Source of the DNA: an uncultured Muribaculaceae bacterium
GTDB lineage: Bacteria > Pseudomonadota > Alphaproteobacteria > Rs-D84
Assembly (NCBI GenBank): GCA_965231035.1
Contig: OZ246409.1
Span: forward strand, 241,101-273,100
Length of the DNA stretch: 32,000 nucleotides
Direction: 5' to 3'
Both the position numbers and the translations under genes were made by a program. This document shows, one piece after another, positions 13,745 to 17,525 of this stretch. The notes beneath the pieces are model-generated. The model worked only from the letters and a program-made list of their open reading frames with translations. It made no database searches and was not told where the DNA came from. Each line of letters opens with the position of its first letter. The stretch's first letter is position 1.

Positions 13745-14473
13745 CTAAGACGGGTTAATATTTACGTCAGTCATCAGTTTTTTAGTATATTTTCTTTCGG
13801 TCTTCAATAATTTTTCAAGTTGCTTTTTTTTAATGCGAGAAAACGCCAGTGAGTATGGTGATCTATTACTAAATTTTTCGTACCAAGAACTGAACCTGCG
13901 ATCTTTCATATAAGAATATAAACTTGCGGCATCTTTGTGTTTATTTTTATCCTTTACTATGGTTTTAATCATATTATCCATCGCCAGATAATAAAGCTTT
14001 GCCCGGTGTTTTATATATTTTAATTCATCATCACTAAATATTTTTGGTTCTTTAACCCACTTCTTTTGTAACAAAGAATACCTTTCATACGGTATATTAG
14101 AAAAAGTTACTGATATATCTATACTTATTCCGGAACAATCGGGTTTATACTTATCAACAAAAAAATTTCTAATAAATCTTATAAAATTATTTACTAGGTC
14201 TGGTTTGATTTTTTCCATATATCTGTCTGGCTTTATAAATATTTTTAAATCCAAATCAGATTTTCTTGAATAAAAGTAATTAACAGAAGATCCACATAAA
14301 AAAACATCAACAACATCATTTTCTAAATCAATTGGAATGTTCGCATAAACAGACAAAACTGTCATAAAAGAAATATATGTTCTTGTCAGAACTTCAGCAA
14401 CTTCGGGTATCATAGATCCATCAGATTGCCATACTTTTGGGTTTAATTTTGAATGATTGTGTATTCTGAACAT
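13745..14473 (-). CDS. Pol-beta-superfamily nucleotidyltransferase paralog 1 of 3 (242 aa)
   Basis: Motifs present: LNPKVW; FLCGSSVNYFYSRKSDLDL, the hG[GS]-x(9-13)-D-x-D minimal-NTase signature; RPDRY-like KPDRYM; and GISIDIS as a possible third carboxylate strand. No signal peptide. An AGGAG RBS lies inside the end of paralog 2. The junction reads TAG-c-ATG. Confidence 0.7.
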   Translation of the reverse strand: MFRIHNHSKLNPKVWQSDGSMIPEVAEVLTRTYISFMTVLSVYANIPIDLENDVVDVFLCGSSVNYFYSRKSDLDLKIFIKPDRYMEKIKPDLVNNFIRFIRNFFVDKYKPDCSGISIDISVTFSNIPYERYSLLQKKWVKEPKIFSDDELKYIKHRAKLYYLAMDNMIKTIVKDKNKHKDAASLYSYMKDRRFSSWYEKFSNRSPYSLAFSRIKKKQLEKLLKTERKYTKKLMTDVNINPS

Positions 14474-14474
14474 G

Positions 14475-15203
14475 CTAGTTAGTATCTCCTAACATTAAAC
14501 TTTTTATTAACTCTTTATTAGTATTTAGCATTTTATCCGTAAGTCCAGAATTTTTAACACGAGATAAAGCTTGAGAATACGGTCCTCTAATTCCAAAGCT
14601 TTCTTTCCATGATTCCACTCTTTTTTTTCTTAGATACGCATATACTTTTGGAATATCAAAGTGTTTATTCTTGTCCTTAATAACACCCATCATAATATTT
14701 CTGATAGATAGATAATATAATTTTTTCCTATGTTCAATATACTTTAACTCACTATTTGTAAGTTTTTTTGGTTTTATTAACCATTTTTTTTGAATCAAAG
14801 AATATTTTGTAATATCTAGTGATTCACCTACAATACCAATATCCACAGGTATACCAAAAATATTAGGAGAATATTTTGCAACAAAATAGCTACTTACAAA
14901 TTTAGAAAAAGACTTGTAAGTTTCGATATCCATTTTCTCTAAATATCTATCTGGTCTTACTTTTATTTTTAAGTCTATATCGGATTTTTTTGTATAAAAA
15001 TAATCTGCACAAGAGCCACCTATGACAATTTCTTCTATATCTTTTTCTAAATCCACGGGAATTTTTGAAAAAGTGGCCAATGAACTCATAACCGCAACAA
15101 CAATATTATTTAACACAAAATCAACATCTGGCCGTAATGAACAATCCCTGCGCCATATTTTTGGATTTAATCTTTTATGATTTGATTTTCTTATTATATA
15201 CAC
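14475..15203 (-). CDS. Pol-beta-superfamily nucleotidyltransferase paralog 2 of 3 (242 aa)
   Basis: Motifs present: LNPKIW; VIGGSCADYFYTKKSDIDL; RPDRYL; GIPVDIG. The start is GTG at 15203-15201 and overlaps the last 10 nt of paralog 3. Confidence 0.7.
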   Translation of the reverse strand: MYIIRKSNHKRLNPKIWRRDCSLRPDVDFVLNNIVVAVMSSLATFSKIPVDLEKDIEEIVIGGSCADYFYTKKSDIDLKIKVRPDRYLEKMDIETYKSFSKFVSSYFVAKYSPNIFGIPVDIGIVGESLDITKYSLIQKKWLIKPKKLTNSELKYIEHRKKLYYLSIRNIMMGVIKDKNKHFDIPKVYAYLRKKRVESWKESFGIRGPYSQALSRVKNSGLTDKMLNTNKELIKSLMLGDTN

Positions 15204-15922
15204 TTTTTCCCCAGAATTAATTTCTTTATTATATTTGTATCGGTTTCTAATATTTTTTTTATAAAACCTTTATTATTAATTTGAGAATAAGCCTTGGAAA
15301 ATGGTAAATAGCTTTTTATATCACCTTTCCAAGCTTCAAATCTACGCTTTCTTAAATCAGAAGCAAATTTTGTCAGTTTGTCATAATTCCTTTTGTTTTT
15401 TAAGAAATCGTTGATCTCATTTTTTAGTGAAATATATATTTTATTTGATTCTTTTTCTATTTCTTTTATTTCTTCGCAGGTTAACTTCGTAGGTTCACGC
15501 AACCACTTTCTCTGGCTTATTGAATATCTAGCAAAATCATAATTATCGCCTGCAGAAAGACTTATATCTACATATAACCCATAAATCCTTGGGGAATATT
15601 TTTTTATAAAAAAGCTTTTAACAAAATTTAAAAACTCTTCAAATATTTCTGGTCGCATTTTCTTTAAGTATCTATCAGGTCTGATAATTATTGTTACATC
15701 TATATCAGAATTTTTATCATAAAAATATTCTACTGAAGAGCCGCTTATTATGACGTCAATAACATCGTACTCGTAATCTAAAGAAATTCCGGCATAACCT
15801 GACAATACTGTCATAAAAGAAATACATATCCTGATTAAAGCATCCGAAACATCTGATTTTAAATACAAATCAGAATTCCAAAGTTTTGGATTTAATATTT
15901 CATGATTTTCTATTCTAAACAT
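15194..15922 (-). CDS. Pol-beta-superfamily nucleotidyltransferase paralog 3 of 3 (242 aa)
   Basis: Motifs present: LNPKLW; IISGSSVEYFYDKNSDIDV; RPDRYL; GLYVDIS. The ATG at 15922 lies 10 nt after the stop of the upstream Cys-rich gene, with no obvious SD. Confidence 0.7.
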   Translation of the reverse strand: MFRIENHEILNPKLWNSDLYLKSDVSDALIRICISFMTVLSGYAGISLDYEYDVIDVIISGSSVEYFYDKNSDIDVTIIIRPDRYLKKMRPEIFEEFLNFVKSFFIKKYSPRIYGLYVDISLSAGDNYDFARYSISQRKWLREPTKLTCEEIKEIEKESNKIYISLKNEINDFLKNKRNYDKLTKFASDLRKRRFEAWKGDIKSYLPFSKAYSQINNKGFIKKILETDTNIIKKLILGKKCI

Positions 15923-15932
15923 AATTTAAAAT

Positions 15933-16559
15933 TTATGCTGCAGGACTGGATGATGATGAAGCAACAGGACAAACAGAAGAAACTCTAACCTGGGCAACCA
16001 TCATTCCATAACCATTTGTCATAGGGCAACTAAGTCTGCAATAACATAATCCTGAATCTAAAACATCATTAGCATAGGCACATGATGTATAAACACAAGT
16101 TCCATAAGCACCCCAAACATAATATGTGCTTGTTCCAACAACCATAGTTGTACAACTTCTGGTTTGTGTTCCTGATCCAACTTCATTACTACAAGATCTT
16201 GAAGACGTTTGTCCGGATGTACACTGGTTAGAGTAAGTAGTACAACTGCCGCTGTCAGCCCAATAAGTTCCATTTACAGTAGCATATTCCCAATATGAAC
16301 ATCCACCCATGGAGCTACCTGCATAATCAGGGCAAAACTGATCAGTATAAGTACATGACGTACATACTTGTTTTTGTAACTGTGATGTTCCACAAGCAAC
16401 ATAACGTGTGTCGCCAGCAGTACATTGACCGGCTGAACAATTAGTATTTGTAGCAAATGCCTCTGATTCAAAACCAAAAAACTTTGCAAATGGAATTATT
16501 ATGATTCCAAAAAGAATCGTAAAAATCTTATTATAAAAAAGACCTATTTTTTTTGCCAA
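15933..16559 (-). CDS. exported cysteine-rich protein (17 Cys), unknown function
   Basis: The only start that retains the hydrophobic N-terminus (AKKIGLFYNKIFTILFGIIIIPFAKFFGFESEAFA) is TTG at 16559-16557, preceded by purine-rich GAGAGAGAAA. The mature part is C/T/S/G/Y-rich with repeated C-[TS]-x-G-Q and S-C-[ST] spacing. Confidence 0.6.
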   Translation of the reverse strand: MAKKIGLFYNKIFTILFGIIIIPFAKFFGFESEAFATNTNCSAGQCTAGDTRYVACGTSQLQKQVCTSCTYTDQFCPDYAGSSMGGCSYWEYATVNGTYWADSGSCTTYSNQCTSGQTSSRSCSNEVGSGTQTRSCTTMVVGTSTYYVWGAYGTCVYTSCAYANDVLDSGLCYCRLSCPMTNGYGMMVAQVRVSSVCPVASSSSSPAA

Positions 16560-16576
16560 TTTCTCTCTCTTGGGTT

Positions 16577-16867
16577 CTAACTAGAATAACTGCAATTGCT
16601 GGTATAAGTATATGTACCATAAGAGTCAGTCATAGTTGTTCCACTTGGAATATAACAGCTGGTTATTCCACCAGTATTATGGTCTATACTTGTACCAGGT
16701 GATACGCAAGCTGTACAAACGCCGCCGCTCAAATAATACCCCGTCGCACAACTGGCAATAGTGCAAACATTCAATGTCGGAGTAGCATAAGCAACCCCAG
16801 AAATAACCGAAAATAAACCTGTTAAAAATATATATTCTAATTTCATAGTACCTGTGAATTTTTGCAT
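16577..16867 (-). CDS. small exported cysteine-rich protein with an ephrin-receptor-like (GCC2_GCC3-type) Cys motif
   Basis: The signal peptide ends ...LFSVISGVAYA|TP (an alternative ATG lies at 16846). The mature ~68 aa contain SCATGYYLSGGVCTACVSPGTSIDHNTGGITSCY. 6 Cys in total. Confidence 0.55.
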   Translation of the reverse strand: MQKFTGTMKLEYIFLTGLFSVISGVAYATPTLNVCTIASCATGYYLSGGVCTACVSPGTSIDHNTGGITSCYIPSGTTMTDSYGTYTYTSNCSYSS

Positions 16868-16898
16868 AATGAATAGTCCCTTGTCAAATAATAAAATA

Positions 16899-17525
16899 TT
16901 ATTTCCATATGTTTAAAGACCCGTTATTATCAGAATACTTCCAACCTAATTCACGAACGGCAGATATTAAATCAGAACGGCTTTTCATCGGGATATTTAT
17001 AATGATTTCGTCACCAAGAATTTTTTTAACCTCTAAATTTATTTTTGCAGACTGAAAAGCATGATTTAATGCCATCCAATCTCTTAAGCCATCTGTAATA
17101 CTAATAGTTACGATAGCCATATCAACATTCGAAGTATCTTCTGAAACCAACCAATTTTGAACATCATTTTCATCTAAAAACTTCTTGGATGCTTCTAAGT
17201 CCAAAGTTACCTTAATGTTTGCAGAATATGTATTTGTGGATAAACGTTCACTGTCGATACTAGTTGAAGAAACCAGATTACCAATTGTGGAATCATCTGT
17301 ATTTTTTATCAGTTCATTAAATTTTTCGCTGTCAGAATACTTTGATAAAACATCTGTTGCTATTTGACGCCGAGCCTCGTTAAAGGCCATAATTTTAGCA
17401 TTTGATGAAGTGTCACTGGTGACATTAACAGCCGCAACACCTGTTAAATCAGGTGCAGAAAAAGCAGCAATGGTAAACATTGCAAAAGAACAAACAACTA
17501 TAAAATTTTTAAAAAATTTTTTCAT
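16899..17525 (-). CDS. exported (periplasmic?) protein of unknown function
   Basis: Signal peptide MKKFFKNFIVVCSFAMFTIAAFSA|PD. 208 aa with no Cys in the mature part. It is the first gene after the strong terminator at 17566-17606. Confidence 0.6.
   Translation of the reverse strand: MKKFFKNFIVVCSFAMFTIAAFSAPDLTGVAAVNVTSDTSSNAKIMAFNEARRQIATDVLSKYSDSEKFNELIKNTDDSTIGNLVSSTSIDSERLSTNTYSANIKVTLDLEASKKFLDENDVQNWLVSEDTSNVDMAIVTISITDGLRDWMALNHAFQSAKINLEVKKILGDEIIINIPMKSRSDLISAVRELGWKYSDNNGSLNIWK

Follow-up and report, generated by a model that had tools for sequence, protein, structure and literature searches.

Exported proteins can be modified in the cytoplasm before they are secreted, as is known from the systems HMW1C/HMW1 and Aah/AIDA-I and from SunS, an enzyme of the GT2 type which acts on Cys-rich glycocins. 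AMPylation of proteins is carried out by the adenylyltransferase domain of the Legionella protein DrrA/SidM, which modifies Rab1 (PDB 3nku, 6yx5), and by MNT antitoxins, which AMPylate their toxins. In the chlamydial outer-membrane complex, a porin is combined with two Cys-rich proteins, the small OmcA and the large OmcB. Here, we have analyzed a stretch of 32,000 nucleotides (the window; assembly GCA_965231035.1, contig OZ246409.1, positions 241,101 to 273,100) from an uncultured alphaproteobacterium of the Rs-D84 lineage. Upstream of rpsB, the window harbors a block of six minus-strand genes. Two of them, cys96 and cys208, encode predicted exported Cys-rich proteins and directly precede three genes encoding putative nucleotidyltransferases (NTases) of the Pol-beta fold, NT1, NT2, and NT3. 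Comparison with other genomes showed that the predicted exported proteins and the putative NTases are the two parts of a conserved cassette.

A two-part cassette in Alphaproteobacteria

One genome per species was scanned for the NTase family, which was found in 37 loci (loci are referred to by L numbers). About 20 of them are non-redundant alphaproteobacterial loci from 'Ca. Enterousia', 'Ca. Scatocola', and other gut metagenome-assembled genomes (MAGs); 16 others are mostly phage-like. A metagenome scan with an alignment of the window triplet returned a single locus, its search patterns being too specific. An open reading frame (ORF) located on the same strand directly upstream of an NTase array was scored as Cys-rich when at least 4.5% of its residues were Cys. 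Such an ORF was found in 13 of the approximately 20 alphaproteobacterial loci as compared to 12 of 252 background ORFs from the same loci (4.8%), giving a binomial P-value of 4e-13 that is not corrected for phylogeny. Co-occurrence of the two gene sets, which the original prediction had named as a check on their association, was thus strongly supported. The pair was present in none of the 16 non-alphaproteobacterial loci.

The alphaproteobacterial arrays comprise one to eight NTase domains. A Cys-rich ORF with a signal peptide lies immediately upstream of the NTase in the window, in L001 (twice), L004, L006, L010, L026, and L028-L031, and the same arrangement occurs in L034, L037, L039, L040, and L051; the signal peptide is present wherever the N-terminus falls within the contig. 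The gaps between the Cys-rich ORF and the NTase range from -10 to 24 nt. Examples of the upstream ORFs contain 64-65 Cys in 543-639 amino acids (aa) and 19-33 Cys in 231-369 aa. The Cys-rich partners are of at least four sequence types, which are seemingly unrelated; many of them carry poly-Ser or Gly tracts, and those of type II are conserved at both termini and variable in the middle. L016 and L019 have no Cys-rich neighbor, and L012 is ambiguous.

Five Enterousia-type loci contain a homologous exported protein with 7-21 Cys in the upstream place, and in three of these five a GT2 glycosyltransferase gene is located between the exported protein and the NTase. The GT2 proteins of L008, L015, and L020 (around 9150-10000) comprise 264-283 aa and are encoded with gaps of -10 to 17 nt; PF00535 matches the copies of L015 (E = 6e-9) and L020 (E = 1e-6), and the copy of L008 is GT2-like by eye only. 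A homology of cys96 to the C-termini of the Enterousia-type proteins was considered from a C-Y...D-S-x-G-x-Y-x-Y...C-Y-S pattern seen by eye, and was dismissed after two-way hidden Markov model (HMM) searches had given E-values above 2.

The genes flanking the cassette vary from locus to locus (HflK/C-DegP-HolC, ClpB, RecG, Lys decarboxylase, acyl-ACP synthetase). A secretion system or mobile element consistently accompanying the cassette was therefore rejected, the flanks being varied housekeeping genes. Comparison of the region upstream of rpsB, likewise proposed with the original prediction, revealed the block as a unit beside rpsB in L051, L004, L001, L006, and L049. Here, the order Pom porin gene, exp208A, small Cys-rich gene, cys208, NTases, rpsB, tsf is kept (in L001 together with L002), with two, three, or five NTase genes. 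An NT1-type gene always follows cys208 directly, and in L001 cys208 and the NTases are duplicated together. The closest public genomes belong to uncultured Alphaproteobacteria from Zodletone spring, activated sludge, and other metagenomes. Only in the window's clade is the cassette located next to rpsB; elsewhere, it lies among unrelated housekeeping genes. The original picture of genes wedged against rpsB hence applies to this clade and not beyond it.

The short contig L050 (420-2463) carries a truncated cys208-like ORF, an NTase gene, a shortened degenerate NTase gene, and a serine recombinase gene of the resolvase/invertase type, as judged by its N-terminal motif; such a neighborhood is a hint of mobility or DNA inversion close to some cassettes.

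The pairing is kept while the flanking genes differ, and it involves Cys-rich proteins of seemingly unrelated types. The genome comparison thus shows a conserved, self-contained two-part cassette of reduced-genome anaerobic Alphaproteobacteria, which occurs in the window's clade, the Rs-D84 order/'Ca. Enterousia', and other gut MAGs. Its first part consists of one or two predicted Sec-exported, disulfide-rich proteins (cys96 and cys208 in the window), and its second part of 1-8 putative NTase domains encoded on the same strand, usually 0-25 nt away. The original prediction had not recognized such an arrangement from any known system, and no description of it was found in Pfam, NCBIfam, PHROGs, or PADLOC. 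It is not mentioned in the literature on Enterousia, polyvalent proteins, and Rs-D84, for which the association itself was not queried directly.

Layout of the block and its exported proteins

The six tightly spaced ORFs of the block are located between the terminator of a Pom-type porin gene and the conserved rpsB promoter (Table 1). Successive ORFs are separated by 31, 17, 10, -10, and 1 nt, exactly as described in the original prediction. Its further statements on the layout proved correct as well: a strong terminator lies upstream of the block and none within it, the first three genes encode proteins with signal peptides, two of which are Cys-rich, the last three encode signal-less NTase paralogs, and the last stop codon (13745) is 19 nt away from the -35 element of rpsB. 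Inside the block, only two terminator-like matches were found (17483-17467 and 16674-16659); both have stems of 5-6 bp and lie in coding sequence, and the second is kept in L004 as coding sequence. The gene upstream of the terminator (17618-19150) codes for a Pom-family porin of 510 aa (PF17251, E = 3e-10), and the Pom gene of L001 is likewise followed by an equivalent terminator.

Table 1. Features of the block upstream of rpsB, in window coordinates; dN/dS values were determined against the near-identical relative L051.
Feature	Position	Strand	Description	dN/dS
Intrinsic terminator of the Pom-type porin gene	17572..17607	-	stem of 16 bp, loop of 4 nt, T-run; bounds the block upstream
exp208A, exported 208-aa protein	16899..17525	-	signal peptide; neighbor of the Pom porin, probably outside the cassette core	0.13
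Cassette promoter candidate	16858..16887	-	TTGACA, 18 nt, TG-n-AAAAAT; 10/12 matches, extended -10; evidence from consensus only
cys96, small exported Cys-rich protein	16577..16867	-	96 aa as called; probable start ATG 16846	0.42
cys208, exported Cys-rich protein	15933..16559	-	208 aa, TTG start	0.20
NT1, putative Pol-beta-fold NTase	15194..15922	-	242 aa; start 10 nt past the cys208 stop	0.12
NT2, paralogous NTase	14475..15203	-	242 aa; 10-nt overlap with NT1	0.09
NT3, paralogous NTase	13745..14473	-	242 aa; 1 nt after NT2	0.24
rpsB promoter and structured 5' leader	13561..13744	-	-35 TTGATT 13726-13721, -10 TAGAAT 13703-13698

The original prediction had further claimed that the six genes form a single operon, three exported proteins being grouped with the NTases. 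This did not hold for exp208A, for which 67 homologs were found: in the distant relatives L045 and L047, the gene still follows the Pom porin gene, and NTases are not nearby. We infer that exp208A belongs to the porin unit and is a neighbor rather than a part of the cassette. A mosaic of unrelated insertions, which had been offered as one explanation of the block, was contradicted for the pair of Cys-rich proteins and NTases and roughly fits the boundary between exp208A and the remaining genes.

A promoter-like site is present in the gap between exp208A and cys96, and a TTGAC(A/T) hexamer occurs at the same intergenic place after the exp208A stop codon in L001, L004, and L006. The block may thus comprise two transcription units split by the site at 16887-16858, where the cassette probably has a promoter of its own. 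The five genes from cys96 to NT3 would be co-transcribed from this site just downstream of exp208A, and the last junctions of the run are presumably coupled translationally. Since no convincing terminator was found between the NT3 stop codon and the rpsB promoter, read-through of transcription from NT3 into rpsB-tsf is plausible; nevertheless, rpsB-tsf has a conserved promoter and leader of its own. The promoter-like site (TTGATT-17-TAGAAT) and the 5' leader are conserved in four genomes. The leader (13561-13697) contains two hairpins, one with compensatory base changes and the other with a 21-nt insertion in the window; it matches no Rfam family and may be an S2 autoregulatory leader. An Rfam search over 12500-19400 yielded only a tRNA-Leu and no riboswitch, leader, or small RNA.

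All six block genes are under purifying selection as compared to L051 (dN/dS 0.09-0.42), with the highest value for cys96. Across 12703-15922 and its flanks, dS is uneven: it amounts to 0.02-0.06 for NT1-NT3 and rpsB and to 0.14-0.22 for cys208, cys96, exp208A, Pom, and tsf, which suggests a recent recombination tract spanning the NTases and rpsB.

By inspection, the three exported proteins appear to carry Sec signal peptides (MKKFFKNFIVVCSFAMFTIAAFS/AP, MKLEYIFLTGLFSVISGVAYA/TP, and ...IIIPFAKFFGFESEAFA/TN; slashes mark the presumed cleavage sites), and the single Cys of exp208A falls inside its signal peptide. Neither these three proteins nor ten Cys-rich partners from other loci gave a significant match in Pfam or NCBIfam. 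In the protein cys96, there are 6 Cys, and Ser, Thr, Gly, and Tyr are abundant. The true start codon of cys96 is probably ATG 16846, as homologs begin with MKLRYL or MKLKYL; this would result in a protein of 89 aa and a gap of 52 nt after exp208A. Orthologs with 87-89 aa are present in L001, L004, L006, and L049. The protein cys208 has 17 Cys and ends in a poly-Ser tail; its central segment is variable. An AlphaFold2 (AF2) model of cys208 is all-beta with a predicted local distance difference test score (pLDDT) of 60 (about 78 over residues 40-160), and a Foldseek search of this model against the PDB returned only noise (E above 1).

The window encodes additional Cys-rich proteins. The 5' end of the ORF at 19273-22383 is overlapped by a tRNA-Leu(GAG) gene (19236-19320); the large Cys-rich exported protein encoded here probably starts at about 19375 (MKKITLLFAV...) and ends at 22383. 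It is conserved, and divergent from Pom, in L001, L006, L045, L049, and L051. Two further Cys-rich ORFs have no adjacent NTases: the product of 23055-24077 (340 aa, 20 Cys) has an N-terminus resembling a signal peptide and, at the C-terminus, the CxxC-rich segment 'CTPCSAGYYCPGG', and 583-1176 encodes 197 aa with 12 Cys. Such proteins are thus common in this genome. In L047 (1033-5456), an RVT_1 reverse transcriptase gene is located directly upstream of a 1042-aa ORF at the Pom-flanking position, which is similar in size to the large Cys-rich protein of the window; a diversity-generating retroelement that targets a surface protein is conceivable here.

Between tsf and tyrS (10373-11728), two paralogous exported proteins of 219 and 229 aa are encoded which are 27% identical, have a GC content of 0.29-0.30, and match no Pfam family; they are absent from the near-identical L051 and from L001 and L004. 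The adjacent tyrS gene (9162-10376) is only 51% identical to tyrS of L051 (10828-12042), as compared to 88-100% for its neighbors, and 92% identical to tyrS of L049, which suggests allelic replacement by recombination or horizontal transfer. In an AT-rich non-coding stretch (24100-25430, GC about 0.26), the perfect 18-bp palindrome TGTCCAATATATTGGACA occurs in at least 14 copies, and a segment of 220 bp is exactly duplicated in tandem (24511-24730 and 24731-24950). A small HTH-like ORF is located at 24978-25283 on the minus strand. The stretch coincides with a flip in gene orientation and the minimum of the cumulative GC skew; an origin, a centromere-like site, and an operator array are all conceivable.

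The putative nucleotidyltransferases

NT1, NT2, and NT3 are 41-44% identical to one another. All three contain G61-S62, D73-x-D75, and a third Asp, D119 (V-D-I-S), in the arrangement G-S-x10-D-x-D. Among 52 aligned alphaproteobacterial domains, 50 possess both motifs that define an NTase, namely G-[SG] and D-x-D/E at a distance of 9-13 residues, and 48 have Asp or Glu at the position of the third carboxylate. G-S, D-x-D, and the third Asp/Glu are all kept in 46 of the 52 domains, and five of the six others show a single substitution. As the catalytic residues are kept in nearly all paralogs, the proteins appear to act as enzymes and not as passive binding or immunity proteins, and the idea of one dead pseudoenzyme per array was rejected.

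An AF2 model of NT1 (pLDDT 85) shows an alpha-beta-beta-alpha-beta core (H23-44, E54-60, E74-80, H91-109, E116-123), in which the GS turn and the strands carrying D-x-D and the third Asp form a Pol-beta core that is followed by a C-terminal four-helix bundle. The three paralogs score 16.9, 19.4, and 20.7 bits with PF01909 (NTP_transf_2), all just below the gathering threshold of 21 bits, which indicates a relation at the superfamily level only. With PF18765 (Polbeta; threshold 26.9 bits), two paralogs reach 13.7 and 17.8 bits and the third gives no match; sub-threshold Pfam matches to MTPAP-like_central and NTP_transf_2 cover only the generic core. All three match the phage family phrog_36119 (E = 2e-13, 5e-13, and, for NT1, 9e-17) over 141-216 of 247 profile positions; PHROGs has no curated cut-off. 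The best profile match to a solved structure, the DrrA AMPylase domain (3nku), is weak (E = 2.8e-4 over about 85 residues), and a Foldseek search of the NTase model against the PDB returned ANT(9), LinB, CdnE/CdnD, MNT, and DrrA, also weakly (E = 0.007 or worse). In BFVD, the fold matches are all uncharacterized phage proteins, with TM-scores up to 0.64.

The NTase genes have a GC content of 27-29% as compared to a window average of 36%. The window NTases are strongly basic with net charges of +8 to +19; this charge is confined to AT-rich clades, and both the alphaproteobacterial members outside these clades and the phage members range from neutral to acidic. The idea that the basic charge points to a nucleic-acid substrate was rejected because the charge is clade-specific. 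In two-gene arrays, a diverged A-type NTase precedes a B-type NTase, and the window triplet and the Enterousia copies are B-type. Fused proteins of about 480-560 aa with two complete NTase domains are encoded at the end of long arrays (L028 9062-10573, L030 9185-10699), and fused double-NTase proteins (P0091-P0094, P0101, and P0109) rank among the best-scoring matches of the representative search.

A profile search of 1.84 billion representative proteins revealed 4,569 clusters of the family at 50% identity, the best-scoring members being mostly longer, multidomain proteins. The NTase domain of about 230 aa forms the N-terminus of large polyvalent-type proteins, and four of eight large members checked carry ART-PolyVal, SAM-lyase, Amidoligase_2, DUF5662, or RelE domains. 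This domain mix is that of the phage "polyvalent proteins" (Iyer et al. 2017; PMC5512222), and domains such as ART-PolyVal are typical of injected polyvalent proteins (PMC5512222). Outside the Alphaproteobacteria, the family occurs mainly in phages. Stand-alone copies annotated as hypothetical proteins are encoded by T4-like cyanophages and Caulobacter phage Cr30. Packaging of phage copies via the T4 head module was considered and rejected as a general rule; it is true of L005 and not of S-CRM01 or Cr30, in which the gene is surrounded by early or auxiliary genes. An isolate of Legionella septentrionalis, km711, encodes a family member of 269 aa with a clear Sec signal peptide (MKHFLLLLAAWQLFLPATFAAA/E; L033, 9869-10678), so at least one member is predicted to be exported. 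No characterized function was found for any family member encountered, and the NTase is a new, uncharacterized family within a well-known superfamily.

Possible function and comparison with known systems

The original prediction had offered, as possible explanations of the block, that the NTases modify or control the exported proteins or their mRNAs, or that the products work jointly at the envelope. Our preferred reading, which we hold tentatively, is that the co-encoded exported proteins, or glycans which they are to receive, become nucleotidylylated by the NTases before export. In the manner of AMPylation, the NTase would consume an NTP and link a nucleotidyl group to hydroxyl acceptors, which would be the Tyr/Ser/Thr-rich co-encoded proteins or their glycans. 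The reaction would occur in the cytoplasm before Sec export as a maturation or protective modification, and paralogs would supply different site or nucleotide specificities. This modification is suggested by the tight coupling and conserved gene order, by the GT2 gene in the same position of Enterousia-type cassettes, and by the analogy to exported adhesins and glycocins that are modified in the cytoplasm. Hints of a protein or glycan target are the profile match to DrrA, the fold matches to ANT(9), LinB, MNT, and DrrA, and the poly-Ser/Gly tracts of the partners. A wider form of this reading appears doubtful to us: phage-derived Pol-beta NTases would covalently nucleotidylylate Sec-exported, disulfide-rich surface proteins of genome-reduced, partner-dependent Alphaproteobacteria, or add another phosphodiester-linked group to them or their glycans, with paralog arrays giving site or nucleotide specificity and thereby diversifying the surface.

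Several points weigh against nucleotidylylation of the partners. The targets leave the cytoplasm unfolded via Sec, so that modification would have to be fast or co-translational, and it is hard to explain why a single substrate should require as many as eight NTase domains, all of them apparently active. The phage members and the Legionella homolog with a signal peptide have no Cys-rich partner, which indicates that the ancestral target was something else; L016 and L019 lack one, too. Furthermore, the similarity to DrrA is weak and confined to the generic NTase core, the counted loci lack phylogenetic independence, and the operon structure is based on spacing and consensus scans only.

The main rival is possible, although rather unlikely. 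The NTases of phage origin would be conflict or effector proteins acting in a partner or host cell or in an infecting phage, and the Cys-rich proteins would be co-regulated, unmodified adhesins or surface proteins. This would fit the polyvalent-type domains in half of the eight large members checked, the predominance of longer multidomain proteins among the best matches of the 4,569 clusters, the exclusively phage matches in BFVD, and the signal peptide of the Legionella septentrionalis homolog; moreover, arrays of diverged, apparently active paralogs resemble effector expansions. For bacteria of the Rs-D84 lineage, dependence on a partner organism has been predicted (PMC12306168). However, signal peptides are lacking in the alphaproteobacterial NTases, none of the loci links these NTases to a secretion system, and their near-obligatory place directly downstream of a Cys-rich gene, often with an overlap or a gap of 1-10 nt, is left unexplained.

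A direct functional link may also be absent, which we consider unlikely: the NTases would ride behind strongly expressed surface-protein genes, or both would be rapidly evolving accessory genes accumulating in common variable regions, and the co-occurrence would result from descent of the loci from one ancient arrangement. The low GC content of the NTase genes fits a foreign origin, the drop of dS against L051 from 0.14 in cys208 to 0.03-0.06 in NT1-NT3 indicates differing recent histories, and both the phylogenetic dependence of the loci and the missing partner in L016 and L019 point in the same direction. Against this, the pair persists while its flanks change completely, sequence-unrelated Cys-rich partners occupy the same position, the pair was duplicated as a unit in L001, and gaps of -10 to 24 nt suggest translational coupling.

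A toxin-immunity pair, in which Cys-rich secreted toxins or bacteriocin-like agents are encoded with NTase arrays that protect the producer by enzymatic inactivation, is very unlikely. The gene order would be suitable, an exported gene being followed by an array of small cytoplasmic paralogs in one to eight copies, much as polymorphic toxin genes are followed by arrays of immunity genes. Among the structural neighbors, ANT(9), AadA, and LinB confer resistance by adenylylating and thereby inactivating toxic molecules, and MNT structures, among the fold matches, represent antitoxins that AMPylate toxins. No toxin domain was recognized in any Cys-rich partner with Pfam or NCBIfam, however, and the conserved termini and variable middle of the type II proteins are the opposite of polymorphic toxins; in addition, the window encodes Cys-rich exported proteins without NTases (19375-22383 and 23055-24077). 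Finally, an action of the NTases on RNA by 3' end tailing or repair, controlling the mRNAs of the exported proteins or rpsB-tsf, is extremely improbable: the matches to poly(A)-polymerase-type cores are below threshold and generic, the basic charge and the adjacency to rpsB, which would speak for it, are limited to AT-rich clades and to the window's clade, respectively, and no RNA-binding domain was detected.

With the cassette, a large uncharacterized NTase family of about 4,600 clusters, widespread in phages, gains a conserved genetic partner and hence an experimental handle. Its hosts, bacteria of the Rs-D84/'Ca. Enterousia' type with genomes under 1 Mb, are uncultured, thought to be partner-dependent, and poorly understood, and their surface proteins are likely to be the interface with the partner. 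If the NTases modify exported proteins, nucleotidylylation would join the known ways in which bacteria decorate secreted proteins; if they are effectors, a phage counter-defense domain would have been domesticated by a cellular symbiont.

Among described proteins, the NTases of polyvalent proteins and phrog_36119 share with the window NTases the same domain of about 230 aa and a fold known from phage proteins. The window NTases differ from the polyvalent forms in being stand-alone, chromosomal, tandemly amplified, and located beside Cys-rich exported genes. The NTase of Iyer et al. 2017 (PF18765; PMC5512222) is a minimal domain from firmicute conjugative elements, from which the window NTases differ by an extra C-terminal helical bundle.

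In ANT(9)/AadA, LinB, CdnE, and CdnD, as in the window NTases, a Pol-beta core at the N-terminus is joined to a helical domain at the C-terminus. These enzymes rank first among the Foldseek matches in the PDB, yet with TM-scores of only 0.17-0.25 and an rmsd of about 15 Å. The NCBIfam model ANT_9 gave 13.3 bits as compared to a cut-off of 340 bits, which places the NTases outside this resistance family; the TM-score in Foldseek is about 0.25. With PADLOC, no CBASS or other defense-system model scored above noise (PDC-S09, E = 0.003-0.03), and no known effector gene is located adjacent to the window NTases. They also differ from the minimal NTase of MNT-HEPN systems in size and architecture (242 aa, two domains); no HEPN gene is present, the neighbors being Cys-rich exported proteins and further NTases. 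With DrrA, they share the motif G-x11-D-x-D (G61 to D73-x-D75) and the preceding helix in a weak profile match. This likeness is limited to about 85 residues of the generic core, the global TM-score is about 0.23, and the GEF and P4M domains of DrrA are lacking.

Like the chlamydial complex, the window combines a porin, here of the Pom family, with small and larger Cys-rich exported proteins. The proteins cys96 and cys208 match no Pfam family and hence none of the chlamydial Cys-rich families, the chlamydial system has no NTase, and the organism is an alphaproteobacterium whose relative L045 encodes peptidoglycan enzymes. The systems of HMW1C, Aah, and SunS employ glycosyltransferases and not Pol-beta NTases, and no sequence relation to the cassette was found; they nevertheless share with it an exported substrate, or in the cassette a putative one, a substrate gene that precedes one or several enzyme genes, and, in three of five Enterousia-type cassettes, a GT2 enzyme.

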